A stretch of 54,191 nt of DNA from Ferroacidibacillus organovorans (GTDB taxonomy: Bacteria > Bacillota > Bacilli > Alicyclobacillales > SLC66). The stretch covers positions 1 to 54,191 of the forward strand of contig NZ_LSUQ01000015.1 in assembly GCF_001642725.1 (NCBI RefSeq), in the 5' to 3' direction. The translations under genes were made by a program, and so were the position numbers. This document shows positions 23,193 to 42,322 of this stretch, one piece after another; within the stretch, counting starts at the first letter, position 1; each line of letters begins with the position of its first letter. The notes beneath the pieces were generated by a model. It saw only the letters and a program-made list of their open reading frames with translations, made no database searches and was not told where the DNA came from.

Positions 23193-23277
23193 GTCGGGGT
23201 GGCGGAATTGGCAGACGCGCACGTTTGAGGGGCGTGTGGGGTAACCCGTGCGGGTTCAAGTCCCGCTCTCGACACCA
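23193..23277 (+). tRNA. tRNA-Leu(GAG)
   Basis: Acceptor GTCGGGG/TCTCGAC + ACCA, D-arm GGCGGAATTGGCAGACGC, anticodon loop TTGAGGG, long variable arm, T-loop GTTCAAGTC. Confidence 0.95.
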
Positions 23278-23381: not shown

Positions 23382-23435
23382 GTGTGTGATCACACACTTC
23401 ATGATGTGTGCTTGACGTGTCCGACAGCACACATC
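23382..23435. repeat. Palindrome cluster upstream of integrase 1
   Basis: Perfect GTGTGTGATCACACAC (23382-23397) and 10-bp inverted repeat GATGTGTGCT/AGCACACATC (23403-23412/23426-23435). Confidence 0.85.
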
Positions 23436-23458
23436 TGGAAAAAGGGGACGTGTGCACC

Positions 23459-24430
23459 ATGCCCAGACGTCGTCAAAATATCGTGTCCTTTGGGACCGCG
23501 TTGGATCAGGACGAAACGCCGAAAAAAACCGTTTGGTCACTCGCAGAAGCCAAAACCTTGTTTCTGGAGGACATTCGCAATTTGGCCATGCATACCCAAC
23601 GTTGGCATCGGGAAAACCTAAACGCGCTTGAAAAAGTGCTGGAGAAGCAGGGAATCGTTGTGCAAGACATGCGCGAATTGACGATGCCGCTTTTGAAAAA
23701 CAATTTTGTGTTTTACATGCGTGACACCATGCATTTAAAAACGAACACCATCAACGGTCGTGTGCGCACGGTGCGCGCCCTTCTTCACTTTGTGTACGAA
23801 CAAGGGTACGTGGCGCGCGATCCTGGCGCGGATGTGCCTTTGTTGCGCCCCGAACGGGTGATGATTCAAACCTTTTCAGAAGAGCAGATTACCCATCTCT
23901 TGCGTCAGCCGGATCGGCATACATTTACGGGACTGCGTGATTATACGATGATGCTTTTGCTGCTTGAAACCGGAATTCGACTCTCCGAGTGTGAAGGCAT
24001 TACGCTTTCGGATGTGAATCTTCAAGAGGGCACGATTCTCGTGCATGGAAAAGGTTCGAAGGATCGGACGGTTCCCTTTCAGAGCAAAATGAAAAAGGTT
24101 CTGCAAACGTACATCGAGGCACGCGGAGCCGCGCAAACCGATCGGCTCTTTGTGACCCTCGAACGAAAGACGATGAGCCGGCGGTACATCCAGGAACTGA
24201 TCAGCCAGTACGGTGAAGCGGCGCAGATTCGCGGTGTGCGCGTATCGCCGCATACCTTTCGGCACACGATGGCAAAATTTTATGTGTTGGCAGGGGGGGA
24301 CATTTTTAGTCTGCAACGCATTCTTGGCCACAGTTCACTTGAGACGGTTCGAATCTATGTGGAGATGTTCTCCCATGAGGTGCAGCATCAGCATCAAAAG
24401 TTCAGCTTTGTCGAGCATCGCTTTCGATAA
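23459..24430 (+). CDS. Tyrosine recombinase/integrase 1 (XerC/D-like, 323 aa)
   Basis: Catalytic R (TGIRLSE), K (HGKG), HxxR (SPHTFRH), H (LGHS), Y (VRIYV); RBS AAGGGG before ATG 23459. Confidence 0.92.
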   Translation: MPRRRQNIVSFGTALDQDETPKKTVWSLAEAKTLFLEDIRNLAMHTQRWHRENLNALEKVLEKQGIVVQDMRELTMPLLKNNFVFYMRDTMHLKTNTINGRVRTVRALLHFVYEQGYVARDPGADVPLLRPERVMIQTFSEEQITHLLRQPDRHTFTGLRDYTMMLLLLETGIRLSECEGITLSDVNLQEGTILVHGKGSKDRTVPFQSKMKKVLQTYIEARGAAQTDRLFVTLERKTMSRRYIQELISQYGEAAQIRGVRVSPHTFRHTMAKFYVLAGGDIFSLQRILGHSSLETVRIYVEMFSHEVQHQHQKFSFVEHRFR

Positions 24431-24651: not shown

Positions 24652-24935
24652 GTTTCAAGGATTGTCTGACACCTAGATAATCCTGTCGATGACAAGCGTG
24701 AGATCCCTAGCTGATCAAGGCCCACCATGCCTCAGCGACTCACTGCTCGAGACTGGGGCCGTAAAGCATACGGGAAATGGTAGTCCATTCGTTTTTTATA
24801 CTCCAAGCTTTTGACGAATGGCAACGGTCCGGGTGAAGGAGTTATATCCTCGGCTTACATGATAAACGACAGCGAAGTATCTGTCGTCAAACCCAACGGA
24901 TACGGGATCCTTGCGTCTTCAAATGCATCGAAAAG
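24652..24935 (+). ncRNA. Candidate large structured non-coding RNA, family not recognised
   Basis: 5' hairpin 24658-24667/24675-24684; long-range closing stems 24686-24707/24904-24931; internal stems 24719-24723/24756-24760, 24785-24793/24813-24821, 24829-24833/24849-24853, 24866-24872/24881-24887; G-U pairs favour the + strand. Confidence 0.55.
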
Positions 24936-25311
24936 TGAAACTGGATTTGATCCATAACTTGTCCCATCCCCGGGATGAGATAGACCACAAAAGCCTCCGA
25001 CAGAACATGTGTATACCCCAAACGACACGGGATTGTCCGTGTGAAATTTTCCTTTCACCCAAAAAACATTCGTATGAAAAAAAACGAAGCTCGTTTAGAT
25101 TTCGTGTATGGATTGAATCGATGATATTGCGTGGATCTGTAAGTCGGTCCGTGCCAAAAACCTGGAATGCTTGCGATGGAAGGGTCTGATCCTTCCTTTT
25201 TTGTATTTTCTGTTTTTAATCTCCGTTTTACTGCATGCGATTTGTGTCTTGCTTTTGCTTGTTCGTTTTTCCTGTCCGGATGATATCTACCTTGCAAGGA
25301 GTGGAATCTGT

Positions 25312-26304
25312 ATGACCCGTCGGCAAAATCAATTACTCGTTGTTCAGAATCCGCAACACAATGCGATCGCAAAGCGTCAGGCATCGGTAGCACTTGTGGA
25401 TGCCATTGCGGCCTATCTGGAGTGGCACACGCTGCATGGTAGTTCAATGTACACCATCAAGCACGAGAGGGAGAATCTGCAAGCTGCGCGGAACTACCTG
25501 GGCGAGTTTGTGCTGGATCAATTGGCGCCCGCTGACATCGAGGTCAGATTTATTGGCTTTATGCGCGCAAAAGGTCTGAGTGGTAATACCATCAATTTAC
25601 GATTAAAGACCCTGAAGCGATTCTACAAATTTGTAGTGCAACAAAAATGGGTCGCGTTTGACCCCGTGGCATCCGTCGCCAAAGTGAGATCGGTCTCGAC
25701 AGAGATCCCGTCGTTAACGATGGAGCAATTGACGTGCCTCCTTGCACAACCGAACCGGACAACGTTTACCGGCGAGCGCGATTACACGTTCATCTGTTTG
25801 GCGGTTGATACAGGCCTTCGTTTACGGGAGATGCTCGATCTAACCGTCGCGCAAATCGACATCAAAAATCGCGTGATTAAAGGCGTGCTGGGCAAAAACC
25901 AAAAGCGTGAAACCATCACCTTGACTCGCGCCATGTGTGAGCAACTCCAAGTTTATCTCGACGTAAGGGGAGCGCATGTAGCGACCGACCATCTCTTTGT
26001 TAATTTGGATGGCGGAGCATTGCACCGAAAGACAGTTCAGGATCGGATCAAAGCTTATGGAACAAAGGCAAAAATCACGGATGTGCGTGTCAGTCCACAC
26101 ACGTTGCGACACACGTTCGCCAAGCAATGGATCTTAGGGGGCGGCGATGTGTTTTCGTTGCAGCGCATGCTCCGGCATTCCACCATGGATCAGGTCAGAC
26201 AGTATGTGTATCTGTGGGGCAGAGAGATCCAGAATCAACACGACAAATTTTCACCGTTGGTAAAGCTTCAGTTGTCGCAAAAAGATCGAAACTCAGGAGT
26301 CTAG
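25312..26304 (+). CDS. Tyrosine recombinase/integrase 2 (330 aa), paralog of integrase 1
   Basis: TGLRLRE, LGKN, SPHTLRH, LRHST, VRQYV; RBS AAGGAG before ATG 25312. Confidence 0.92.
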   Translation: MTRRQNQLLVVQNPQHNAIAKRQASVALVDAIAAYLEWHTLHGSSMYTIKHERENLQAARNYLGEFVLDQLAPADIEVRFIGFMRAKGLSGNTINLRLKTLKRFYKFVVQQKWVAFDPVASVAKVRSVSTEIPSLTMEQLTCLLAQPNRTTFTGERDYTFICLAVDTGLRLREMLDLTVAQIDIKNRVIKGVLGKNQKRETITLTRAMCEQLQVYLDVRGAHVATDHLFVNLDGGALHRKTVQDRIKAYGTKAKITDVRVSPHTLRHTFAKQWILGGGDVFSLQRMLRHSTMDQVRQYVYLWGREIQNQHDKFSPLVKLQLSQKDRNSGV

Positions 26305-27034: not shown

Positions 27035-27460
27035 GTGAGTAATGTATTAAAAGTAGCGCATTACACTCGTACCGTTGGTTCTTCGCAAAGTCTACGAATC
27101 CAAATAGAGGCTGCTCGATCAACGCTCAGTTCATATTCAATGGATCGAATTGTATTGTTCACTGATCGTGGTAGTGCGCGCCAGGGTAGAGGCCTTGATG
27201 CTCAACCGCAATTGAATCAGATGCTCGAGATGATTAAAGATGGAAAAATTGGCACAGTCGTCGTGTATGATCGCATGCGTTTAGCCGGAAATGTCGAAAC
27301 CTACTCGGGAATCATTAAGTTGTTCTATCGTTATCGCATCCATGTCCTATTTGTATCAAACTATGAAAGGCCTTTTCATCAGTCGAATCTCGCAGAATTA
27401 ATGGAATCGGCGATTTTACATGAGCAATTGCGTAGAATTGTGCGTCCCATGAAAGCATAG
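27035..27460 (+). CDS. Stand-alone serine recombinase (resolvase) catalytic-type domain lacking the catalytic Ser
   Basis: HYTRTVG (canonical YxRVS), FTDRGSAR, VVVYDRMRLAG; RBS AGGAGG; 141 aa. Confidence 0.75.
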   Translation: MSNVLKVAHYTRTVGSSQSLRIQIEAARSTLSSYSMDRIVLFTDRGSARQGRGLDAQPQLNQMLEMIKDGKIGTVVVYDRMRLAGNVETYSGIIKLFYRYRIHVLFVSNYERPFHQSNLAELMESAILHEQLRRIVRPMKA

Positions 27461-27520
27461 AGGCATCTGTACTTATGCTCACCGTGTACCGAATTTTCTG
27501 ATGTGGGGATGTGTCGTGAA

Positions 27521-28897
27521 ATGGGGAACCTAGGTATAGCGTTGTACATTCGTGTTAGCACAGCACAACAGAATATCGCGATGCAAGAGGGATCTGCTGG
27601 CTCGATACTGAGCCAGTTCCCCGCATCGCAGATTCATCGATTTATTGATGAAGGGGTTTCTGCTACAAAAACAAAATTACGTGAGCGTCCCGGATTGCAG
27701 AAGTTAATCCAATCCATTCAACACAGGGAAATTGGTACGGTTGTGGTGTATGATCGATCACGAATCTCGAGAAATACGTACGAGTATATCGCTTTTGTAA
27801 AAATCATCCAATCATATAACGTGCGAGTGATCTTTACTGGAGATAAGGAACCTGCATTTACTTCATCCCATTTCATTGAGGCTTTTTACGCGTTACATGC
27901 ACAGGGTGAAGGAAAAAAAATCAGGCAACGTGCGTTAGACGCGCAAAGACACTTTCCTTCCAAGTTAATTGGGTACATAAAAATAGAGGAAAATGGACAG
28001 GTGCGATATATACGTGATGAACCAAGGGCGACGTACATTCAATCCTTATTTGAAAAAATGGCGAATGTCTCAACAACCGTGGAAATGGAATCGGTTTTTT
28101 TGCAATATCGAGCAAAGATAAAGCGCCCATACCTACGTCTGTTTAAAATCCTTAATACTCCTTTTTATAGTGCGATCGTACTTAATGAAAATCAGTGCCA
28201 ACAGTTGGAGTATGTGGAGCCGATCACAACACAAGATCTTTACAATCGAGTTAAACAAAATTTGAATGTCATCGCAAGCGCAGATCAGCAAGTTAAAACG
28301 GAGCAACTAAGTTATCGCATGATGCCGGTATGCGGATATTGTGGAGAACCGATGAGCGTGCAATCCGGTGACTATTTTCATCGGAAAATGGCGACGTATG
28401 TGTGCAAAACAAAAATCCATAGGAGAAATGCGATTTCTATTCAAGAATATGAGAATGAAATTATGAGCATTATTTATGATTATTTGAAATCGATCGATAT
28501 AAAGAAAATGGAGAAGATGTGTTTTCAGTATATTAGGGAACAGGAAATGAAGTCTAAAAATAAAAAAAGGTCTTTGGAGCAAGCATTAGTTCAAATAAAT
28601 GTTGAGATCGTAACGTTTCTTGCGATTAAGAAAAGAACGGATGCCCTCTTAAAAAGGAAGGAACAACTTCAGGTGGCTTTACGGGATCAGGATGCAATGA
28701 TTAAACGTTTGGATGACATTAAGGTTAACTTTTCAGAAATGGCATATTTAATAAAGGTTCGTTTAATTTCGGATCTGATTCAAGACAGTGATCTGTGGGA
28801 CTTGGCGGAAGACTTGATTTGTCAAATTTCTGTTTTTAAATCAGAAATTAAGATGGTGTTACGATGCAAAACATTTATTCGAGAGGGTGCGTTCTAA
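27521..28897 (+). CDS. Large serine recombinase A (458 aa)
   Basis: YIRVSTAQQ, DEGVSA, RPGLQKL, DRSRISR; zinc ribbon CGYCG..YVC; coiled coil. Confidence 0.88.
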   Translation: MGNLGIALYIRVSTAQQNIAMQEGSAGSILSQFPASQIHRFIDEGVSATKTKLRERPGLQKLIQSIQHREIGTVVVYDRSRISRNTYEYIAFVKIIQSYNVRVIFTGDKEPAFTSSHFIEAFYALHAQGEGKKIRQRALDAQRHFPSKLIGYIKIEENGQVRYIRDEPRATYIQSLFEKMANVSTTVEMESVFLQYRAKIKRPYLRLFKILNTPFYSAIVLNENQCQQLEYVEPITTQDLYNRVKQNLNVIASADQQVKTEQLSYRMMPVCGYCGEPMSVQSGDYFHRKMATYVCKTKIHRRNAISIQEYENEIMSIIYDYLKSIDIKKMEKMCFQYIREQEMKSKNKKRSLEQALVQINVEIVTFLAIKKRTDALLKRKEQLQVALRDQDAMIKRLDDIKVNFSEMAYLIKVRLISDLIQDSDLWDLAEDLICQISVFKSEIKMVLRCKTFIREGAF

Positions 28898-28898
28898 A

Positions 28899-30386
28899 AT
28901 GCAGCAAGCGATTGGGTATTGTCGGAGATCAGATGCAAAACAGGAAAATAACCACTCGATTGAGATTCAAATGATGTCAATAAAGGATGCTGCTAAACGT
29001 TTTAACGTCGAAATTGTTGAGTTTTATGTTGACGATGCAGTGAGTGCCTATGCATATAACGCCAAGGAAAGATTAGCAATGAAACGTTTGAAAGATCGCG
29101 TGATCAATGATCATAACATTAAAGTTGTCTTATTTTATGACGAATCCAGAATATCAAGGCAAATCGATGATTTTGTGAATGATGTTTTCTCTGAAATAAA
29201 AGAATTAAGATCTGATGTTATATTCTATAGCACTGATAGCTCAACTCAAAAAGCTTGGGATCCGAATGATTTTGAGACGATGTTGCAGCTATTGCTGGCC
29301 AATGAAGAATCTACGAAAAAATCATCGCGTGCCATGGATTCTCAAAAGAATGCCTTGAGAAAAAATAAGCCGGTTCGACCTGGATCTAAAGCGCCGTATG
29401 GCTTTACTAAAGAAGGAAATACTTTGGTGCATAATGATCAGGCGCCAATAGTTTACTTTATTTTCCATATGGCGAGTTACGGGTACTCTGAAGAGCAGAT
29501 TGCTCAATATCTAAACCGAGCTGAAATTCCATCGCCATCCAATGGCTTATGGGCCCCTAGCAGTATCAATATGATCGTAACAAAGCGAGTATACGTTGGG
29601 GATCTCGAATGGTACGTGCGGAAAAATCGGAGAAATGGCGCAAGAAGCGATTCCACGCAGATTTCGTTGTTTCCCGCTATCTATGAGCCTATTATACCTT
29701 TAGATTTATGGGCCTTGGTACAAGAATTAAAAATGGAAAAAAAGACAACTAAACGCAAAATGAATTCACAATATATTTTACAGGGCTTGCTTAAATGTGG
29801 CCATTGTTTTGAAATACTCAATCACAAAAATTACACGCCAGGAAAGGCAAAAAAGCAATATGCAAACTATTCGTGCGAAAGTTGTGGTTATCGAATGGAT
29901 TCTCGAGACGTAGAGGAACGAATTGTTAAAATGATCGCTAAAGATTGGGAAATTCATCCCGATGATTTTGTGCGACAAGCTAGTGGCATGCTGAAGGATT
30001 GGATTAAATCACTGGAAAAGGAAATTTCGACTAAAGGGAAATATCTGCAATACGCAGAAGCTGAGTCGAAAAATACACCTCTAAGTCCGGAAATAAATGA
30101 TTCAATTGAGGCTGTACATCAATTAATCAATGATAAGGAGAAGTTAAAAACACAAATTTCTTTGTTTCTTTCTACAGAAGATGTGATCTGGAAAACACGG
30201 TTTGGCGACAAGATCGATATACAAAGTTTGAATACGACGGAGCGTCGAACGTTTTTATTTCAGATCGTGGAGGAAGTTCAAATTCGTAAAAACGCGAATG
30301 GGGGTTTTACGCCTAAAATTGTATACCGCGAAACCCCATTTATCTACTATAATAAAGTAATGAAGCCATCAGAAGAAACTTTATGA
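28899..30386 (+). CDS. Large serine recombinase B (495 aa)
   Basis: YCRRSDAKQ, DDAVSA, DESRISR, APYGF, YEPIIP recombinase domain, LLKCGHC..YSCESC zinc ribbon. Confidence 0.9.
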   Translation: MQQAIGYCRRSDAKQENNHSIEIQMMSIKDAAKRFNVEIVEFYVDDAVSAYAYNAKERLAMKRLKDRVINDHNIKVVLFYDESRISRQIDDFVNDVFSEIKELRSDVIFYSTDSSTQKAWDPNDFETMLQLLLANEESTKKSSRAMDSQKNALRKNKPVRPGSKAPYGFTKEGNTLVHNDQAPIVYFIFHMASYGYSEEQIAQYLNRAEIPSPSNGLWAPSSINMIVTKRVYVGDLEWYVRKNRRNGARSDSTQISLFPAIYEPIIPLDLWALVQELKMEKKTTKRKMNSQYILQGLLKCGHCFEILNHKNYTPGKAKKQYANYSCESCGYRMDSRDVEERIVKMIAKDWEIHPDDFVRQASGMLKDWIKSLEKEISTKGKYLQYAEAESKNTPLSPEINDSIEAVHQLINDKEKLKTQISLFLSTEDVIWKTRFGDKIDIQSLNTTERRTFLFQIVEEVQIRKNANGGFTPKIVYRETPFIYYNKVMKPSEETL

Positions 30387-30881
30387 ATTTGAAAGGTCAT
30401 CTATTGGAATAAATAATCATTTACATTTTGAACACGGCATTTCGTAAACCGAAAAAATTCCATGCGAATTGCAAATAAGGTAGGCCTCAAGGTTAATTAA
30501 AATAATAAACAAAATTATTAAAAACGATAAATTATATCTGAATTAAAAGCTTAGATGAATTACGCATATTATTTGACGTCTCGAATGGCAATGCTCAACG
30601 ATGTCAAGGTTATGTGATGCTTACGAGAAGAAGAAAATGATGATACATAACGAAGGGAAATATTCATACCTATTCATATTTTCGGTAGATGAAAAGGTGA
30701 AAACGTAGCAGATAGATGGGAACGATTAAAAGTCATAAAACGTTAAATATTCAATAATTATAATATTTGCGATCAATTAATTCGTCGATCTTTTGAAATT
30801 TAAAATGCATAATTATTCGCGGATATTTTGATCTTAATATTCTGTGATAAATTCGGGTTAGTGCCCAATATAACTATTTAG

Positions 30882-30933
30882 TTTTCGGTAAAGTACTTGT
30901 CTAAGGATCCTTAGACAAGTACTTTACCGAAAA
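30882..30933. repeat. Perfect 52-bp palindrome with no spacer
   Basis: TTTTCGGTAAAGTACTTGTCTAAGGA|TCCTTAGACAAGTACTTTACCGAAAA; 26-bp arms are exact reverse complements. Confidence 0.97.
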
Positions 30934-31290
30934 AAAGGCTTGAGAAAGCCTTGTATTAGCGGGATTCTTAGGACCTCCGTTTTGGGGTGATCGCTCAGTC
31001 AATCGGATGTTTCGGTTTAGCGACCAATCAAAAAAGCCGTATATTGACCGTTTATTCCGATAATAATGAGATAGGTATGGAATATTTGTATAAATATACG
31101 GTTCGATTTGCGAAAATAATCGGGGTTATGACAATATATTGCAGGAGATTAACGGATAAGACAATAAACGCCAAAATATTTTTTTTACAACTATGCTCGG
31201 CCGTAAGGATAAATTGGAGTTAGCTCCATTGACCCCAGGGAAGTTCCGCTGTCCTCGCAGTATCGCTCAGCAGAATGTGGTTTTCCGAAG

Positions 31291-31556
31291 TTTCGAAACC
31301 ATCGACTGGAACGACTTTTAAAGGAGATTGGACGCATGCAACTGTTCATTTTGGATGAGTGGGGCTCCGTAATCACGGACGACCAGATGGCGGCAGCGAT
31401 GATTGACCGTGTGGTCCATCATGGGCACCTGTTAAATTTCGGAGGAGTGAGTTACCACATGAAGGACGCGCTGATGAAACAGCGCTAAAAATTCCCTGTC
31501 AGGGGCATGGAGAATTACCAATGACAATAACGGGTATTTTAGCTTGACAAAATACA
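31291..31556 (+). pseudogene. istB: IS21-family istB remnant with internal deletion, plus IS21 terminal repeat region
   Basis: RLERLLKEIGRMQLFILDEWG joined to SVITDDQMAAAMIDRVVHHGHLLNFGGVSYH (stop 31488); end ...TTGACAAAATACA. Confidence 0.8.
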
Positions 31557-31920
31557 CAACCGCAGCATCGGTTCTCAATCGGGAAAGATGCGCATGACTC
31601 GCTCACGACGGCGAATTAAATTCTCTCGTTTAACCGCTCTACATTGTTCGTCGTTCGCAACTTCCGACCCAAAGTTGCGGGTAATGCCAAGACCGCAATC
31701 GCATCCTAAATCCTTCTTCCAACACTTTGATCATCTTGAAAAAGGGACTGCAATAGATCGAGATTTATCGTAAACTATGGTTGAGACCAATGGATTCTTC
31801 TTCTGTGAATAAGTGCTTGACACAACTATTCTACCAGAGGAAATCGAATGGCTCATCTTATTTAATAGAGTCTCGACAGCCTCGAGTTTGCGCACTTTTA
31901 CACATAATACCGGACATAAT
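31557..31920 (-). mobile_element. Internally deleted, degenerate IS256-family element
   Basis: IS256-like end GTCCGGTATTATGTGTAAAAGT on - strand; broken frames give AVLALP..RKLRTTNNVERLNE..IRRRERVMRIFP. Confidence 0.7.
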
Positions 31921-32260
31921 TCTGACGAATAGTATTCTCTACTCACGACGATAACTTTGCAGTACTCCTCACAATAAAGTTGCGTAGTCGCGATGTGGTT
32001 CAGTACAAATTGGACGGTTACGGAAAGCAAGGGTCTTACATCATTTGGGTCAGATGATTTGGGCTTCAGTGTGTGATTTCATGCGAATGTCATTTAACTT
32101 ATTTAAGACAGTGCTCTTTACCATGTATAGCTGCTTGACGTTCCATTCGGGTTTGACGGGCTAGATGATAAACCTGATTCTGTCAAGAAGTTCGAATATA
32201 TACATCAACTTAATTGATATCATCTATGAAACTTCATTTTATTGAGAGGAACATTATGAA

Positions 32261-33697
32261 ATGCGAAAAGCATACGATACATTTTTGCAATCCGAAGTAT
32301 CTGCGGATTTAGCTACCAAAGCTGGTAGTTTTGAACCGTATCGTTATGAGTGCGCACATTGTGGCGAAGAAGTTCGATTTGCTGCGGTGGGAAGCAATAG
32401 TATGGTTCCGCATTTCAGACATCGCAGCGGGAATAGTGATGTTGAATGCGAGTATTATCTTGGGCAGTATCGTGCTTTTAGCACGGATGCACGTTCAAGA
32501 AAAAGCAAAAGCGAAAGAGCCGAATTCTACTTTGATAACAATACAAAGATGTTTTATCTTGGGTTACGGTTAAGTGACGACGAGATTTCCGATTACGAAC
32601 TACGGTCTACTACTTTTGAGTTGAGAACCATGCCACATGCGGCCGCATTCTATTCATTGCGCATCAATGGCAGAAACTTTAGCCCTGATGTTCAGAGAAT
32701 GATACCTATAGAAGAATTTTCATACAACTATTTTTTATCTAATACACTGAATGACGTTAAGCGAAAATACGAGGTTTTCAATAATGCTAGAAATGGTGCA
32801 CCCACTTTTTTTAAGATGCAAATTGGGGATAGAGATTACAGGGCAAAATTGGTTCGCAGTTCTGTTCTCTATACTAACATCCCTTACCTTGTAGTATATC
32901 AGAGTCAGTATTGGGTTCCAGGAAATGTTCACTTGCCGAATGAAATCAACATTGAAAGTTCCTTCAAGTTTGAAACCATGGGCAGAAAATTCTTAGGAAA
33001 GGTTTTGACTATAACTTCGAAAACTGCACAAGTTGATTCATTATTGTTGTCTTGGGGATATCAGTTAGAATTCTCAGAAGAGCTAACACTGTTATGGCCG
33101 CCTTCGCCACTTGTTGACGAATCAATACTCGTTAATGCTGACAGTGCATATCTGTTCTCAACTTTTGAACTGCAAGCGCAGGGTAACATAAATGCTCATT
33201 CGCAGGACCTTAAGAAGATCGCCGACGGCATTTCAAAAGTACCGGTTCGGTCCAGGACGAAGGTGTATAGGAAAAACGCCGAACTGATGATTGAAAAGCG
33301 TGAACAGGCATCGGATTCTTATTCAGCTATTCCTGTGGCGCGTAAAGTTTCAAGAACTTATATTGTGCAGGATGACAGCACTTTTTTATTCAACCGTTCA
33401 GGTGTTTCACACTTAAATAAAGGTATGGCTGTCTTGCTGACCCCAGAAAGCGAAATAAGGCATTTTACATTTGGGTATCTTGATGGGTGCGTTACTCCTT
33501 CAAGTCATGATGCATTGGCAGGAGATCTTTTGCTTCAAGACCTTCTTATGTACTATAAGAGAAAGGAAACCTTTAAATGGGATGACTATGAATCGCTTGA
33601 ACTTAGTCAAACCGCCTTTCAGTACATCGAATCATGCGAAAAATCAGAACTGATAAACTCTGCGGCAAAATGCTTCATCGAGGAGGAGCGTATATGA
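32261..33697 (+). CDS. Defence operon gene 1: N-terminal CoiA-like zinc ribbon protein (DruB-like)
   Basis: YECAHCGEEV...PHFRH..C motif; RBS GAGAGG; first of five coupled genes; DruB assignment is from architecture and position only. Confidence 0.6.
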   Translation: MRKAYDTFLQSEVSADLATKAGSFEPYRYECAHCGEEVRFAAVGSNSMVPHFRHRSGNSDVECEYYLGQYRAFSTDARSRKSKSERAEFYFDNNTKMFYLGLRLSDDEISDYELRSTTFELRTMPHAAAFYSLRINGRNFSPDVQRMIPIEEFSYNYFLSNTLNDVKRKYEVFNNARNGAPTFFKMQIGDRDYRAKLVRSSVLYTNIPYLVVYQSQYWVPGNVHLPNEINIESSFKFETMGRKFLGKVLTITSKTAQVDSLLLSWGYQLEFSEELTLLWPPSPLVDESILVNADSAYLFSTFELQAQGNINAHSQDLKKIADGISKVPVRSRTKVYRKNAELMIEKREQASDSYSAIPVARKVSRTYIVQDDSTFLFNRSGVSHLNKGMAVLLTPESEIRHFTFGYLDGCVTPSSHDALAGDLLLQDLLMYYKRKETFKWDDYESLELSQTAFQYIESCEKSELINSAAKCFIEEERI

Positions 33698-35280
33698 AAT
33701 ACCTTCCTATGATGACAGAAGATGAAATCCGATATGTTTGCTCTGTTTTACCGCTTCGAGAGTCGGTGTTGTACTTCAAGCGCTATCCGAAAGATTTTGG
33801 AAAGGTCATGCCTGGTTTCAGGGCTACAAGCCTGAAGAGCCAAGAACAAGTTAGTGGCGTTTTGTTTAGAAGCCGCAATCAGCACTTTATCTCGTCGTTC
33901 ATAGAAAAACACATCATCCAGTGGATTGACGATATAGGCACGTCCATATCTGAAGAAATGGCCGCTGGCGCAAGCAAAGAATCTGCTTGGCTTCAAGTTT
34001 TGCCGCACTGTTTCTTTGTTGACAAGATTGGACTGTATTTTAAGCTGACGGGTGAAGAGCATTCTGAAGAGTTTATCGCAATACTCGGTGCAAGCATAAA
34101 GTTAACCAAGGATTCCGAAAAGGAACGCAAGCGTATGGAGGTTGTCCTCAAAGATAAGTCTTCTGAGGTCAGACGTGTTGAGGCAGAATTTGAGCGCGTT
34201 CAGTCAGAATATAATGAAACAAGAAAAAAACTGAGTGAACGTATTGGTGAAATAGAGGTCCTTAAGCGTACCAGTGCCGGCCTTGAAAATCTGAAAGAGA
34301 CTATCCAGTCCCTAGAACAGGCGATTGAAAGATTGAAGCAGAAAGCGCAAGAGCGTGAGGTCTATATACAAGGGCTAAAGGGTGAGTTGCTTTCTGCGAG
34401 AGACGAGCAACATCATCTTAAAGAGAAAATCAGAGAGAGCATTGAGAAACAACGGGCAAAGGAGTATATCGAGCAAGAGGTCTTTCGAAAACCAAGATGT
34501 CCAAAAGACATTGACGAATTTAAGGATTATTTGGGATATAACCTGCAAGACCTTGGTGTACCAACAGATGCTGACTATTACGTCCTCCTCAAGGATTATC
34601 TGGGTGAGGTATTGTTTCAAGGGAAGCCTGTTATTGTGAGCAGAAACACAGGAATGTCCCTAATGAAATGTGTGTCAAATACACTGATCAATACGACCGA
34701 TGTGCCAACGCTGGTTTTTGCTTCTGATATAACAGAAAGAGCAATTGATTCTTTCTTATCGCGGAGCAAGCGCATTGTTTGCTTGGATAATTTTATTGGA
34801 AATTATAATGAAACGACTCTGATAACAATTAGCGATAGGCATAAAGATAAGGTTATTTTCTTAACTGTCGCCTATGACCGAACGCTCCGCTATGTCCCAA
34901 ATGAGCTAATGAAATATTGTCATTACTTAAATCTTAACCGCATTGAGGAATTTACTGCTAATAAGGAATTGTCAGAGGACCCGTCTATCGTAGATGAAAC
35001 TGAAGTATCTAACGATATATTCACCCCGGATTCACGGTGGTCACAGCTGTTGAGAGAATTGCTTGATGAGTTCGGTATACGTGGTGCTTTGTCTGCATAC
35101 AAAAGCGCTCGTGTTTCTGATGAAATGAGCCTTTCCCGTTTATTGGCTTTTGATGTTCTCCCTTACTGCGTGGATGTTCTTCAGATTGCTCCGTTTAATA
35201 CTTCTGAGCGGTTAGTAAAGTATGCTGGAGATGGAGGCAGATGCTCCCATAAGGATTTGTTCAAGAGGTGGTTTGCGTGA
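33694..35280 (+). CDS. Defence operon gene 2: coiled-coil protein (DruC-like, 528 aa)
   Basis: Long E/K/R-rich heptad region; ATGA overlap and RBS GGAGGAG; possible degenerate NTPase C-terminus. Confidence 0.55.
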   Translation: MKYLPMMTEDEIRYVCSVLPLRESVLYFKRYPKDFGKVMPGFRATSLKSQEQVSGVLFRSRNQHFISSFIEKHIIQWIDDIGTSISEEMAAGASKESAWLQVLPHCFFVDKIGLYFKLTGEEHSEEFIAILGASIKLTKDSEKERKRMEVVLKDKSSEVRRVEAEFERVQSEYNETRKKLSERIGEIEVLKRTSAGLENLKETIQSLEQAIERLKQKAQEREVYIQGLKGELLSARDEQHHLKEKIRESIEKQRAKEYIEQEVFRKPRCPKDIDEFKDYLGYNLQDLGVPTDADYYVLLKDYLGEVLFQGKPVIVSRNTGMSLMKCVSNTLINTTDVPTLVFASDITERAIDSFLSRSKRIVCLDNFIGNYNETTLITISDRHKDKVIFLTVAYDRTLRYVPNELMKYCHYLNLNRIEEFTANKELSEDPSIVDETEVSNDIFTPDSRWSQLLRELLDEFGIRGALSAYKSARVSDEMSLSRLLAFDVLPYCVDVLQIAPFNTSERLVKYAGDGGRCSHKDLFKRWFA

Positions 35281-36296
35281 TGAATGACTTGTTGAGCACG
35301 ATGTCTATTGATATGGGCATCCCACCTTTCCGCAATGAAACCGAAGAGTCCTTTGTTTATAGACTCTGCTACTCAGCGTTAGGGCAATGGTGCCTGACTA
35401 CTGCGCGAAACTCGTTGGGCAATATTATTGGCACAACTAAGCATAATCAGACGATTGTGCTTAATGGCCTATTGGCAAGGTTCACAGAGTTATTCCCTTA
35501 CATTGCTCACAGATTTACTGATATCGGCAAACAGCAAGCAAGTCTTGCTGTCAGCATTCGTAGGGCGTACGAGGAAACAGGGTATTTGCTGACGCATGTC
35601 GATAATCATAATAAAATAGCAGACTTCGGTAGAAGTATTCAAATTGGGGACAAAGCGCTATTCTTTGGATTACCCAATACAACTATAGAGGTCAATGGAC
35701 TTGGGGTCTATGCAAACTCCACGGAGTATTTGGTTGATTTGAAAGACTTTCTGATTAGAGACACTCTAACGAGTGAGGAGTATTTTTGGTCACGGTTTGA
35801 CCCAATTGATTTTTACGAAAGAGACATTAGCTTAACCGATTTAGAATTTTTCAATCCAAAGTCAAATAATGTTCCGTCAATGTCATGGCGCAAGAAGCCG
35901 GAGACGGATTGTACCGTAGCACGAAAAACTGAAACGGGACCGTTCTACCGAATTATGAGAATTGACGATACGTTTCATTTTGCTGATGAACCAGTCGAGC
36001 AGCAAAATGACAGCTTCACCTCGCATGAGTATAGGCGGTTGTACTTCGCGTTGAAAACGCATTACGACAATCCCCTGAAAGCTACAATCACAAAATTTGA
36101 CGAGTTGTACTCGAAAATCCGAGTGGGAGGGCACTTGCCAAACCGCGAATACTACCTGCTGTTGCTTATGTCGTGGCCGGAAAACAACGCCTTCGACAAG
36201 GTGAATTTTATAATAAGAAATGACTTACTGCCACCAGCAATCAACGCACTTGAGAACATGGGCATAAAAATTAAGGGAGGACAAACGAATGAATAA
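35280..36296 (+). CDS. Defence operon gene 3: hypothetical protein (DruD-like, 338 aa)
   Basis: Start overlaps the previous stop; [11 protein letters not shown]-terminal motif; size and position directly before the helicase. Confidence 0.55.
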
Positions 36297-39200
36297 TCCT
36301 AGCGGTGTCCGTGAATACTATCAGGCTATTCGAGATAGGCTAAAGAACTACATTAAATCAGATTACTTGGCCAATAGCGAAACACTATTGCTGTATGTCG
36401 ATGACCTACTCGGCGAGTTGAGTTCTGAATCTACGAACATTGCGCGTGAACCATATATTGAAACATCTGCCTCCTACAAGAAAATACAAGATGGTATCAA
36501 AAACTCTTCACGCATTGAGCAAGGAGTTAAAGAGTCTTTGATCAAATTGGTTTCTAACGGACTCGGCATCTTTCCTGACCCCTTTGAGCATCAGGTTATG
36601 TCACTGGAGTGCTTCCTTGCAGGTCGGGACTTGTTTGTTTCGACAGGTACTGGCTCAGGTAAGACCGAGTGCTTTCTCTGGCCAATTATTGCGAAATGTT
36701 TTGATGAAGCTAAGAATCACCCGAAGACTTTCAGGAACGAAGCTGTGCGGACTCTCATAATCTATCCCATGAATGCGCTTGTCTCTGACCAACTGGCTCG
36801 TTTTAGAAAAATCATCGGTAGCACAGAATTTGTGGATATTTTTACGCGAGATACACACGCAACGCGCATACCTCATTTTGGCATGTACACAGGCAGAACG
36901 CCTTACTCTGGAGATATGAAACCGGCAAGTAGTCGAGAACTGGCTAGGACTTTCCGTGACAATTATTTGATCGATGAAACCGCTGATGCAAATAAACAAA
37001 GAAGGCAAGCTAACAACATTGAGGGACTAAAAAGCATTAATAAATACCCAGCCAGATTTGGAGAAGACGGGCTTCGCATTTTTATCGAGAATCTCGAACG
37101 CAACATACACAGGCCGTCACAATACGACGCAGAATTGATTACTCGTTTTGAGATGCAGAATTGTCCACCGGACATCCTGATTACCAACTATTCAATGCTG
37201 GAATATATGCTTATGCGGCAACGCGAAGCTAACATTTGGGACAAAACAAAGGAATGGCTTGACGCTTCACCGGACAACAGACTTCTTATTGTCTTGGATG
37301 AAGCACATATGTACCGTGGTTCTGCCGGTGGAGAAATTGCTCTTCTGCTGGAAAGACTGTTCTATCGATTAGCCATTTCTGCGGAAAGGGTTCAATTTAT
37401 CCTAACGACAGCGAGTATGCCGCAAAACGAGAAAGAATCAATTAATGCTTTCTACACAGGGCTAACAGGGAAAGATTCTGCTTCTAGCGAATTTATCTTC
37501 GGATCAAAAGAACAGATACCAGACGAGCAAGAAGTAAGAACGGATATCGATTCATTGGCTTCGATAGGTTCTGACCAAGCCCAAGGAGATGAAATAACCA
37601 AACGGATTGTCGCTTTTGCGTCGTCCGTGTTCAAAACGGCTTTGCCTTCAGATATAAGTCAAAGCGACGCCAAAGTATGGCTTTATGACAATCTCCCGAA
37701 ATATGAGGCATTTGTTAATCTGAATAAACTCTGCCGTGATGGTGCGAAATCCTACAACGAAATTAGAAATGCACTTTTTGGAAGCGAAGCCAATAGCGGA
37801 AAGGCTCTTGACGCTCTGTTGGCATTAGTTTCGTTGGCTGCAAAAGATGACACTATTCTGTTCCCTGTCAGGCTACATATGTTCCTTCGCGGTTTACAAG
37901 GACTTTACGCTTGCTCCAATCCTAAGTGTACTTCTGCAAAGCACTCAGCGAGTGAGAAACTACCACTTGGAAGAGTAATCTCTATTCCAAAGGCCAAGTG
38001 TGAATGCGGCGGCAGAGTATACGAACTCGTCAACCACATTAAGTGCGGTGCGCTTTATTTCAGAGTTTACGTTCAGAAAAACGAAGGGCGCCCATTCTGG
38101 TATGTTTTCCCGCAACGCGGATTAAGCGGAGATGCCGGCTCGCTTAAAGAAATGTTGCTATATGTGATTCCGGAAAACTATCAAAAGGGGAAGAAAGACA
38201 AGATTGGGGCGCTCGACCCCCTAACGGGTAAGCTGTATTTAACTCCACAAGACGATGAGTCTTTACTTCATGTAGTCTACAACTTCGGGGTATGCCCCAA
38301 ATGCAAAAAGCCGATGCCCTTGAAGAAGCCTGTTGACTTGTCAACAAAGGGCAATATACCGTTTTATAATCTCACAAAGGCTCAGTTTGAACTTCAGTCT
38401 CCAAAATCAGACCTTATCAATCAAGGCAAAAAGGTCTTGTTATTCTCAGACTCGCGCCAGAACGCGGCCAAACTTGCATTAGACCTCTCAAAATCGTCGG
38501 ATGCAGATGCTTTCCGTCAAGCGGTGATGCTTGCGTCGCTGCTGTTGGAAGTGAATGGCAAAGAGCATTCTTTGGCAGACCTGTACCCTGCGTTTTTAGA
38601 TGTTTGTATCCAGTACAACCTTACTTTCTTTAGCGGAAAGAGCAAGGAAAAATTTTCTGACGATAAACGCAAGTTTGGTGCCTCAAAATCACGGGCAGAA
38701 AAACGTGGTCGAGCCGTTGAATATGCATCTCTTTCGTCAGAATACCGCTCTTTGCCCGATGAATATTACGAGCAACTACTTACATTCTTTACAGAAAGTC
38801 CGCGTTCGTTTAAGGATATTGGAATTGGTTTCTTGGCGCCAGTTTCCGCAGTTCTGGATGATTGCTTGTATGACTTAGAAGATGCCGAGATTAGTATTGG
38901 TAATACTATGTTGTATCAGTTACTTGTCCTGATGTTTTGGGATGTTATGGACGACAGTGCCGCCTTGGGAGAGACCATTCAAGATGATGTTCGAAAAGGA
39001 TTGCCTGGGCGGAGCAAAGGCCAGGTTTTTGGTTTGAGTTATGACTTTTCTACTTCCCTAGACAAGGCACTACTTCAGCGCATTCAGGAGTTACTTGCTC
39101 TTGATAACAGTTCAATGGGCAAGATTGTTGAAAAAGTTCGTGACTTGTTTTTTGCTTCATCGTCCACGAATCGGTTTTACATTAAATTGAGCGCAGTGAA

Positions 39201-41475
39201 GATTGAGTTAGCAAGCGCAGATTTTACATGGTACCGTTGCGTCAAATGCGGTAAAATGTCACCGTTCAAGATTGGAAATTACTGTGGTGCTTGTTTTGAT
39301 TCGGTTGACTTGGTTTCCATTGGAAAAAACGAACTTGCCCGTTTCGATTTCTGGCGAATTCCGGTTCTGAACGCACTGAAAAAAATCGAGAGTATTCACA
39401 CCATTGATACTGAGGAACATACTGCGCAGCTTTCCCATAAAGAAATTCGCAGTGACACTTGGAGTCGTACAGAAAAATATGAAATGCGGTTTCAAGACAT
39501 TAACGCAGGCGAAAATGGCGAAGATGCGATTGACGTGCTGAGTTGCACGACGACGATGGAAGTCGGTATTGACATTGGGTCTTTGACCGCTGTTGGGCTT
39601 CGCAATATACCGCCAATGAGGGAAAACTATCAGCAAAGGGCAGGGCGTGCTGGCCGTAAGAATACGGGGATATCCACAATCGTAACCTATGCTTCGGGCG
39701 GTACACACGACAGCCATTATTTCCAGCACCCAGATGAGATGATATCAGGGGCTCCGCGTAAACCGTGGATAGACCGAGACAATCCCAAAATCAAGCAGCG
39801 CCATGTAAATATGTTGGTGCTGAATGGATTTATGTCAACGCAAGATATGAGAAGTCAATTTGATGGCATCGTCGATATAGGAATCATCACATTCTGCGAA
39901 TCATACGGCGAGAACTTTGTTGAATTCGCGGAGCAATTTGCGCGTTGTGATACGGGTTTGCCAACAACCAAAACGATTGAACATTTCCGAGAAATATGCG
40001 GGCTTGTTTTAACAGAAGGCAGGCGTGACGAGTACATTAACGACAACAATGAGACACCGGCGTTTGATATCTTTTACCGAGAGGGTTTTATTCCTTCGTA
40101 TTCATTCCCGAAGAATGTCGTCAAGTTCTTCGTTGAAAAAGAATCTGAAAGAGGAAAGAATGCGCCAAGAGAAATTCAGTATGCTCCCGAGCGTGACATC
40201 GCCGTGGCACTCAGTGAATACGCGCCTGGGCGCTTTGTTACCATTGATAAGAAAATCTTCAAAAGCGGTGGGATTTACGCAAATCCCCGTCCACGTGGGT
40301 TTGAAGGGAATCAGGCTGAGTTTTACTTCAAGAATAATGACTACTACAAAGACATCTTGATCTGCTCCGAGTGCAATTGGTTTGCCTTACAGGAGGAGGC
40401 CCATCGTTCGAAATGTCCGTATTGCGGGTCTGATATTGTAAAAAACAAAATGTTGCGTCCTTGGGGTTTTTCCCCTATGAAAGGCGATGAGGTGAAGTTC
40501 AAGGATGAGGACGAACAGTATACCTACGCCGAAGCGCCGTATTACTCCTATGTGCCTGAAGATACACGGATGGATAGTTTCGGGCAGAGCAAAATACGCT
40601 TTGCCAATCTACCCGATCGAAAGGTATTAACTGTTAATATGGGCACGGGCAAGGACGGCTTCAACGTCTGCAAGAAGTGCGGCGGAGCAGAAGTTGCTGA
40701 CACTAACGGAAATGGCGTCTATTCATTTTCACAGCCTTACCATGATAATCATCCGATTTGTCGGCATGACGGGACGGTTGCCCCTGGTATCTATTTGGGA
40801 TATGAGTTCCTAACAGATATGTTTATGCTCGACATATCCTACGATTCAACAAAACTCGTTGGGAATAGAAGCGCGGAAGAAAAAAGCATTCTCCGTGCTG
40901 CCGTAACTACTCTGCATGAAGCTTTTAAAAAAGCCGTCTCACTTGTCTTGGATATCGATTATAACGAAATTAGCGGAGGTTGGCGTCCGAGAATCAAGAC
41001 TGACGGGAATTCACATATAGAGATGTTCTTCTATGATAATCTGACCAGTGGTGCGGGTTACTCTTCACTGATTGGCTCGATTTTGGACAGAGTTCTTGAG
41101 AGGGCGCGAATTATACTGACGGGCTGTGAGTGCTCATGTTCTTGCAGAAACTGCTTGGACAATTACTGGAATCAGAGACACCATCAGTTATTTGACCGTC
41201 ACCTGGGGTTGCAACTGCTCGACTACGCCCAATATGGGCATTTGCCCGGTGACTATGATATAGCAGAACAGCAAGAATATCTTCGCCCATTGCAGAAACT
41301 GATATACGAAGATTCAGGTTTGCCATCGAACCAATCCATCTCGTTTGAGGTTATTCCTGCAATGCGAAAGAAGCCAGACAACACACGAAGCCAACTTTAT
41401 CTTTATCCATACGATTTATCTGACTGGCTTCCAAATGCGTTTATGACATATAGAAATCTTGTGAACGAGGGGTAG
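36289..41475 (+). CDS. druE: Large DEAD/DEAH-box helicase with C-terminal DUF1998 domain (DruE-like, 1728 aa)
   Basis: [50 protein letters not shown]; several CxxC pairs; [12 protein letters not shown] and [14 protein letters not shown]1998 signature. Confidence 0.8.
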
Positions 41476-41479
41476 TAAT

Positions 41480-42322
41480 ATGGCTAAGTCGCTTTCGCCC
41501 CTTCGTTATCCGGGCGGAAAATCGAAAATCTACGAAAAAGTTAAGAACCTAATCATTGCTAATGGCTATGAAGACAGAACCTATGTCGAGCCTTTTGCCG
41601 GCGGTTTTGGTATAGGGATTGGTTTGCTATGCGAAGGCATAGTGAAGGTGGCCATTCTGAACGATTTCGATGTGCATATTTATCATTTTTGGCACTCCGT
41701 TTTGAATGACACGGAAAACCTCCTTCGCTTGATTACTGATACGCCGATAACGATTGAAGAACGAGAAAGGCAAAAGCTGAATTACAGAGATGTGGACGCA
41801 GACCCTTTGAGCGATGGATTCGCAACGCTATTTTTGAACCGCGTTAATTTTTCCGGAGTTATTAAAGGCGGACCTATTGGGGGTTTGGCTCAAACAGGAA
41901 CCTATAAGGTTGACTGCCGCTTCAACAAAGCAGATATACGTAGTAAAATCGAGACAATCGCCAAGCTTAAAGGGAAAATAAAGCTGTACAACAAAGATGC
42001 TGGTTATCTTATAAGAATGAGTTTGATGAAGATGAAAGCACCGATGTTTCTTAACATTGATCCACCATATGTTGTAAAGGGCAGTCAGCTTTATACAAAT
42101 TTTTTCACTGAAGGAGACCATCTTAACCTTCAGCGAGTTATCATCAGGCACTTGGGTGAAGAGTTCCCTTGGATAATTACTTATGATGTATGCAATTTGG
42201 TCAGGGATTTATACAAGCGATTTCATATGCAAGAATATGGGATTACTCACAACGCCGGAGGTACCGTTCAGGGAAAAGAGATTGTTATTACAAATATCCC
42301 GACGGGCAGATTTGTATGGTGA
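41480..42322 (+). CDS. Dam-family (D12 class) N6-adenine DNA methyltransferase
   Basis: SPLRYPGGKS, YVEPFAGG, LNDFD, FLNRVNFSG, DPPY; starts 4 bp after the helicase stop. Confidence 0.9.
   Translation: MAKSLSPLRYPGGKSKIYEKVKNLIIANGYEDRTYVEPFAGGFGIGIGLLCEGIVKVAILNDFDVHIYHFWHSVLNDTENLLRLITDTPITIEERERQKLNYRDVDADPLSDGFATLFLNRVNFSGVIKGGPIGGLAQTGTYKVDCRFNKADIRSKIETIAKLKGKIKLYNKDAGYLIRMSLMKMKAPMFLNIDPPYVVKGSQLYTNFFTEGDHLNLQRVIIRHLGEEFPWIITYDVCNLVRDLYKRFHMQEYGITHNAGGTVQGKEIVITNIPTGRFVW

Follow-up and report, generated by a model that had tools for sequence, protein, structure and literature searches.

A perfect 52-bp palindrome beside two large serine recombinase genes in Ferroacidibacillus organovorans is probably an unusually symmetric member of a family of recombinase core sites

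What is the role of a perfect 52-bp palindrome that lies downstream of a cluster of recombinase genes in Ferroacidibacillus organovorans? We analysed the 54,191-nt stretch of contig NZ_LSUQ01000015.1 that contains it, which is called the window throughout. An initial annotation, made from the letters of the window, had described a spacerless palindrome with 26-bp arms, a central AT within GGATCC and a smaller palindrome inside each arm. All of these features were reproduced. The two arms of 26 nt are 100% complementary, with 0 nt between them (left arm, TTTTCGGTAAAGTACTTGTCTAAGGA; right arm, TCCTTAGACAAGTACTTTACCGAAAA), the centre reads GGATCC, and AAGTACTT is present inside both arms. Restriction-type words such as GGATCC and AGTACT are uninformative here, since every spacerless palindrome has a palindromic central hexamer. 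The palindrome is located as follows.

30882-30907 and 30908-30933, no strand: left and right arms of the core palindrome, with the dyad centre between A (30907) and T (30908)

Across the whole genome (98 contigs, 3,034,429 bases), this is the longest spacerless perfect palindrome, and the runners-up have arms of 22 and 21. Palindromes with arms of at least 12 number 11 in the genome, against about 0.2 estimated by chance. The 22-nt half-site, with up to three mismatches allowed, is found nowhere in the window but in the two arms, and 100 shuffles gave an expectation of 0. A genome search for single half-sites, which had been proposed together with the first description, likewise gave none beyond the two arms at the same stringency. 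The exact 22-nt half-site has no match in the genome-contig and metagenome-contig collections, and a 914-bp region around the site has no match among plasmids. Among 40 relatives, the sole match to this region is an unrelated 70-bp piece in one genome. We ruled out an origin of the palindrome as an IS end or a MITE, because the genome holds no further copy. Other long perfect palindromes are found at G000:C11:27936-27979 (44 bp) and G000:C55:3935-3976 (42 bp), the latter resembling a bidirectional terminator with a G+C-rich stem between A-rich and T-rich runs. Two more, at G000:C30:24694-24727 and 24901-24926 (34 and 26 bp), each consist of the word TTATCCACA and its complement. We take this word to be the DnaA-box consensus, so that these two palindromes probably belong to the chromosomal replication origin.

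The genes around the palindrome are the following.

23193-23277, plus strand: tRNA-Leu(GAG), with two tyrosine integrases coming next
23408-24430: tyrosine integrase 1
25171-26304: tyrosine integrase 2
27035-27460, plus strand: SerA, 141 aa, catalytic domain only
27503-28897, plus strand: SerB, large serine recombinase, 464 aa
28887-30386, plus strand: SerC, large serine recombinase, 499 aa, with Pfam Resolvase and Recombinase domains
31351-31467, plus strand: C-terminal fragment of IstB (IS21), matching IstB_IS21 with E 4.4e-10 over profile positions 196-234 of 238
32261-42322, plus strand: Druantia type I genes in the order druB, a gene in the druC position, druD and druE, then a D12 adenine methyltransferase

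The cluster of five recombinases that had been placed upstream of the palindrome thus consists of two tyrosine integrases and three serine recombinases, with three small ORFs between the two groups. The tRNA-Leu(GAG) gene is the probable entry point of a low-GC island, and GC drops from 0.50-0.60 to 0.33-0.50 past about 25 kb. SerA resembles an incomplete copy of the SerB N-terminus, as 41 nt of serA (27233-27273) are 76% identical to the start of serB (27716-27756). SerB and SerC carry Recombinase and zinc-ribbon regions. A profile of the SerC family aligns end to end with the SPbeta integrase (positions 5-486, E 1e-28); for the A118 integrase, the match lies in the C-terminal domains (E 2.6e-11). 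The palindrome is located 495 bp after serC, and a scar zone at 31.0-32.26 kb, containing an IS-like 99-nt repeat at 31620-31718, separates it from druB. Within this zone, the minus strand at 31244-31306 gives a sub-threshold match to a group II intron domain (RF02005, 23.7 bits versus a gathering score of 49, E 3e-4), and 70 bp at this place matched one relative genome with 84% identity. The Druantia genes match their models strongly (DruB, E 2.3e-220; DruD, E 6.9e-160; DruE, E 0), while the gene in the druC position has no Druantia model match and only a weak LmuB match. We found no druA reading frame in 30934-32260, where IS scars occupy the region. The Druantia system may therefore be incomplete, its upstream 1.3 kb being taken up by the IstB fragment and the IS-like repeat.

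Could the two flanks have been falsely joined through the palindrome, as an assembly or fold-back artefact? We checked the junction on the Logan contigs of the source-sample runs X1 and X4. No contig of these runs bridges the palindrome: they end at 30908/30911 and restart at 30907/30904. The mean contig depth also differs between the left and right of the centre (465.4 versus 291 in X1 and 272.5 versus 141 in X4, or 1.6- and 1.9-fold). Both observations would suit an artefact. However, we reason that a k=31 graph of a true 52-bp palindrome would break at those very places, and the original 54-kb contig passes through the site. Moreover, contigs of relatives in another study's metagenome cross the centre from either side. 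One, from a relative of about 97% identity, extends from serC through the 430-bp spacer and crosses the centre of the core, reaching 30922. Another, more diverged, starts at 30894 and continues into the right flank. Comparable sites are also present in 36 other loci, and two of these, from unrelated sources, are perfect palindromes. An artefact is thus extremely improbable. A second copy of the recombinase side was sought in the assembly and not found, and no alternative junction is listed for 29800-32300.

These 36 loci come from three samples of SerC homologues: eight in 400 other genomes of the class, nine metagenome loci, and those of 34 of the 401 genomes of one order. A dyad of the same geometry follows nearly all of the homologues, and sites with a matrix score above 5 number 37 with the window, 36 of them distinct. 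A comparison with related islands had been suggested at the outset; it shows that the site is present elsewhere, mostly in imperfect form. Six of the eight class-level relatives have a full core, one a diverged core and one a lone half-site. Seven of the nine metagenome loci have a core, one of them being a near-copy of L016; an eighth, L030, extends to the end of its contig. Of the 30 order-level loci scanned, 26 have a site scoring above 5, and the distance from gene to site is 99-205 bp in 24 of the 30 and 736 bp in two. SerB and SerC are paired in seven of the eight relatives examined.

The sites share a dyad of about 46 bp with an invariant outer motif, TCGGT, 19-23 bp from the dyad centre. 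In the window this motif is located as follows.

30885-30889, plus strand: TCGGT, outer motif of the left half-site, mirrored by ACCGA at 30926-30930

In 28 arms from 14 sites, arm positions 4-6 are T, C and G in 28/28, position 7 is G in 26 and position 8 is T in 27. The inner part of the dyad is conserved as G.A/T.C, where the slash marks the centre. The centre-adjacent base is A in 28/28 arms, and A/T stands at the centre of all 37 recognised sites, although this invariance is partly built into the search, as an A/T centre was demanded in one scan and favoured in the order-level scan. In 12 of 13 loci, a third, lone half-site follows in the same orientation 32 bp beyond the far arm (+58/59). 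In the order sample of 30 loci, this third half-site exceeds a score of 5 in 17, and its mirror position exceeds 0 in none. Some loci have an extra lone half-site on the gene side, for example L017 at -101. A terminator hairpin lies between serC and the core in the relatives inspected by eye, and the fold is stronger on the gene side of the core in 31 of 36 loci by a crude measure.

The protein closest to SerC is P0002, named as Ferroacidibacillus organovorans, with 68% identity. Among plasmids and phages, we found only distant relatives, with less than 28% identity among the matches listed. No close relatives were found by peptide patterns in genome contigs, nor in 18 other genomes of the family or in viral contigs. 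A streptococcal phage region with a related recombinase pair has no core of this type. The site family and the two-recombinase module of defence islands that contains it are apparently undescribed. The parts of the literature available to us hold no description of perfect palindromes with large serine recombinases, or of this site beside adjacent recombinase pairs in Bacillus, and the accessible passages on accessory half-sites describe none like it.

Is the palindrome then functional as a nucleic-acid structure or as a binding site for a protein? A hairpin or cruciform might serve as a terminator or stabiliser, as a single-strand or transfer origin, or as a hairpin-telomere site of the protelomerase type. 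The perfect 24-bp stem is indeed very stable: the single-stranded palindrome folds with -31.2 kcal/mol, compared with -6.5 ± 2.0 for 200 shuffles, none of which equals it (z = -12.6). The arms also co-vary between loci, with an identity at variable positions of 0.63 within sites and 0.31 between sites, as base pairing would demand; arms would, however, also co-vary if every site followed the sequence preference of the recombinase that goes with it. Pairing is poorly kept in the family, as 33 of the 36 distinct sites have 3-9 mismatches per 23 positions. The 190 arm-to-arm mismatches are near random, with no wobble preference and no strand bias (116 transversions; transitions, 36 versus 38 between strands). 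The conserved lone half-sites have no partner arm at all. A T-run upstream of the stem and an A-run downstream give the reverse of a terminator, separate terminators adjoin the site, and a terminator scan picked 30935-30952, not the palindrome. Rfam returned only sub-threshold generic hairpins (28.9 bits or less, where the gathering scores are 50-119). In a Pfam scan of 19 proteins, the tyrosine recombinase domains are only of the integrase type, and no relaxase or replication-initiator domain was found.

Protelomerase tel sites, such as those of N15 (telRL) and phiKO2, share with the window site a length of about 50 bp, perfect symmetry and the lack of a spacer. Here, however, Pfam gave only domains of integrase and resolvase types, there is no sign of a linear replicon, and nearly all distinct sites of the family are imperfect. 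The hairpin-telomere and replication-origin alternatives, both raised in the initial annotation, are accordingly not borne out, as the cluster encodes only tyrosine-integrase and resolvase-type domains and most sites are poor palindromes. Altogether, a function as a hairpin is very unlikely. The imperfect sites and their unbiased mismatches argue that what is conserved is a protein-binding dyad of attP-like size.

If symmetry is dispensable in the family, why is it perfect in the window? Among the 36 distinct sites, all 23 positions are symmetric in three (the window, L024 and L015), 14-20 are symmetric in the other 33, and no site has 21 or 22. This gap argues for perfection in a single step. 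The perfect metagenome site L024 also has GGATCC at its centre. In all three perfect sites, symmetry is confined to the core, with asymmetric flanks on either side. It had been proposed that a symmetric AT dinucleotide would allow antiparallel joining of two identical half-sites. This agrees with the experiments on phiBT1 integrase, as far as the accessible part of Zhang et al. 2013 (PMC3836970) describes them, in which palindromic central dinucleotides gave products from antiparallel alignment. As a source of the perfection, however, the joining of two whole sites is ruled out by the flanks, which are not mirrored, so this part of the proposal leaves the symmetry unexplained. Perfection would rather have come about in one step confined to the core, and the function of the site would not need it. 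Quasi-palindromes are known to mutate by template switching. This route offers the simplest explanation, which we put forward tentatively, and the window palindrome would then be a natural example of a quasi-palindrome perfected in a single step. In itself, the perfection is probably no more than a curiosity of secondary origin.

Judging from comparative sequence data, the palindrome is probably the core binding site, and the probable crossover site, of SerB and SerC, as an unusually perfect member of its family. The dimensions fit such a role. A full-length integrase dimer of the A118 family is expected to contact 50 bp of attP according to the part of Rutherford et al. 2013 accessible to us, and TCGGT at 19-23 bp fits the attP register given there. 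We assume that this motif is read by the zinc domain of the recombinase. By analogy with large serine recombinases at attP, a recombinase dimer would occupy the two half-sites and cleave at the central AT. The AT is self-complementary, and the core alone would therefore lack polarity; directionality could come from the one-sided accessory half-sites, as it does in res sites. One locus, L021, bears directly on the crossover point. Here, a strong left half-site (score 21.3) ends in ...GGGA/T exactly at the centre and abuts unrelated DNA that runs into a small ORF; the serC homologue is decayed and serB is missing. L021 may thus represent a single natural break at the predicted crossover.

On the other hand, almost every chromosomal copy of the site is intact, which speaks against the crossover reading. 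Hybrid junctions of the attL/attR type are absent save in the decayed locus L021, and no attB was found. The intact copies indicate that the site is not the junction by which the islands entered. The original proposal of a recombination site for the adjacent serine recombinases is therefore upheld in part: the recurrent architecture, the attP-like length and register and the L021 break agree with it, but the site did not serve as the entry junction. Three pairs of closely related loci share a block of about 4 kb (7.2 kb in one pair), and this block stops 8-13 bp past the accessory half-site, at a distance of 59-67 bp from the centre. The module thus appears to be exchanged without visible use of the core centre. 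Candidate roles of the site are a spare attP of the SerBC module inside a tRNA-Leu island entered by means of a tyrosine integrase, a res-like resolution site and a docking site for defence cargo.

Some of these observations can also be read in terms of a regulatory operator. The recombinases, or another DNA-binding protein encoded in the module, would sit on the dyad and on the accessory half-sites and control transcription across the junction between serC and the genes after it, with no strand exchange. In favour of this reading, the site is intact in nearly all loci, and homology blocks stop past the accessory site and not at the centre. In several relatives the site lies between a terminator and a promoter-like sequence before the next gene. 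Pattern searches of five genomes gave at most one true site each, and an orphan site complex in genome G496 survives without serB and serC. However, the 46-52 bp of the dyad and the conserved motif 19-23 bp from its centre agree with what a dimer of a large serine recombinase would cover, and usual operators are far smaller. In addition, the L021 junction is exactly central, and the window site is followed by an IS scar zone and not by a gene. We therefore consider an operator unlikely.

Taking the palindrome as a SerB/SerC core site, we compared it with known systems. Like the attP sites of A118/LI, Bxb1, phiC31 and SPbeta SprA, it is a dyad of about 50 bp that adjoins a recombinase gene and has a distal conserved motif. 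Unlike them, it has a self-complementary central AT in place of the non-palindromic dinucleotide that sets polarity, which is atypical for serine integrases, as are lone accessory half-sites at a fixed distance. Furthermore, there are two recombinase genes instead of one, the site is intact in chromosomes, and no partner attB was found here. The res sites of Tn3/gamma-delta and Sin also combine a crossover-type dyad with one-sided accessory sites, a possible source of directionality. Site I of Tn3/gamma-delta has a central AT. The recombinases here are, however, full-length large serine recombinases and not small resolvases with a C-terminal HTH, the accessory elements are single half-sites and not dimer sites, and no replicon or transposon in need of resolution is evident.

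Two adjacent large serine recombinase genes among anti-phage defence genes are also characteristic of SCC/SCCmec, with ccrA and ccrB. Ccr recombinases mobilise tandem defence cassettes, as stated in the accessible part of Hossain et al. 2024 (PMC11470126). The defence neighbours in the window and its relatives include Druantia, type I restriction, GmrSD, HNH and OLD-family genes. In contrast to SCC, the recombinases fall far below the NCBIfam cut-offs (CcrA, 52.8 bits versus 700; CcrB, 57.9 bits versus 900), there is no rlmH target, and no such palindromic site is described for SCC in the literature passages available to us. The three co-oriented genes near an element end resemble the serine integrase triplets of streptococcal ICEs (Ambroset et al. 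2016, in the part accessible to us). In L016 and L018, the gene order is serB, serC, site, third recombinase and rumA, a gene that single serine integrases are known to target according to the same part of that paper. No site of this kind is mentioned there for the ICE triplets.

In the window, the arrangement around the core is peculiar. The elements concerned are the following.

30935-30952, minus strand: terminator-like hairpin AAGGCTT TCTC AAGCCTT plus a T-run, abutting the core on the side away from serC
31009-31034, plus strand: lone half-site-like motif GTTTCGGTTTAGCGACCAATCAAAAA at +127, the mirror of the -101 position of L017
30850-30875, plus strand: degenerate accessory half-site (TTCGGG...), weak, at the mirror of the +58 position of the relatives

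The leftward hairpin on the far side and the mirror-placed half-site-like motifs suggest, on sequence grounds, that the site complex of the window is inverted relative to serC. The motif GTTTCGGTTTAGCGACCAATCAAAAA scores 7.7, and scores of at least 7 occur at only 6 of about 44,000 positions in 23-45 kb of the window, but it is sub-threshold with a broader matrix and only suggestive. The degenerate half-site at 30850-30875 scores -5.1 at the mirror offset of +58 and -4.0 one base nearer to the core, compared with -16.8 on the other side, and related metagenome contigs have a G>T change at 30857 that restores TTCGGT. None of the 30 other family loci scored has the mirrored arrangement. The flank hairpin energies in the window (-14.4 versus -13.3 kcal/mol) are too crude for assigning an orientation. 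The window site may once have belonged to a different module that has since disappeared. A search for remains of serC on its right gave no match, with a best tblastn E of 0.55, an E of 11 at the expected place and nothing above 0 bits in a profile search.

The module sits just inside another integrase, which is a tyrosine integrase in L015 and L020 and a third serine recombinase beside rumA in L016 and L018. Past the shared block, the defence cargo varies between a ResIII helicase and HEPN plus HsdR, and the window has Druantia. In L063 and L064 (G516 and G415), the slot right after the module end is filled with an HNH endonuclease gene in one genome and a GmrSD gene in the other, followed in both by a shared YgjP-like gene and HsdR; no repeated site was found at the far end of this slot. 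One may imagine that SerB, SerC and the core form an orientation-blind platform for the docking and exchange of defence cargo, as a Bacillales counterpart of SCC/ccr or of integron attI. Exchange at the self-complementary AT would join DNA in either orientation. The flipped complex, the adjacent Druantia and the depth step would then be footprints of ongoing recombinase activity in this strain, in the course of which the recombinase side could be folded back or present in extra copies. We regard such a platform as quite unlikely.

If SerB and SerC do act on the site, they would define a widespread two-recombinase module of defence islands in spore-forming Firmicutes, found in 34 of 401 genomes of one order. 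The site would have been found by comparison alone, and the module would be directly testable. Its logic, with a symmetric crossover dinucleotide and one-sided accessory half-sites, would be unlike that of textbook serine integrases. It would have a bearing on what determines polarity in serine recombination and on the mobility of defence genes such as Druantia, and new recombinase/site tools could be gained from the module.

Several loci of the family show further variation. The serC homologue of L072 (G426:C14) is split by an insertion of about 2.4 kb into parts encoding residues 2-421 and 434-544. The orphan site complex without serB and serC, L071 (G496:C138, 7623-9423), is 98% identical to that of G432 and forms a 1.8-kb remnant flanked by two FtsX-type permease genes. 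In L023, L027 and L031, a conserved promoter-like stretch about 100-330 bp past the core is followed by a short sequence and a strong hairpin with a T-run, which may be a small RNA or the leader of a third recombinase gene.
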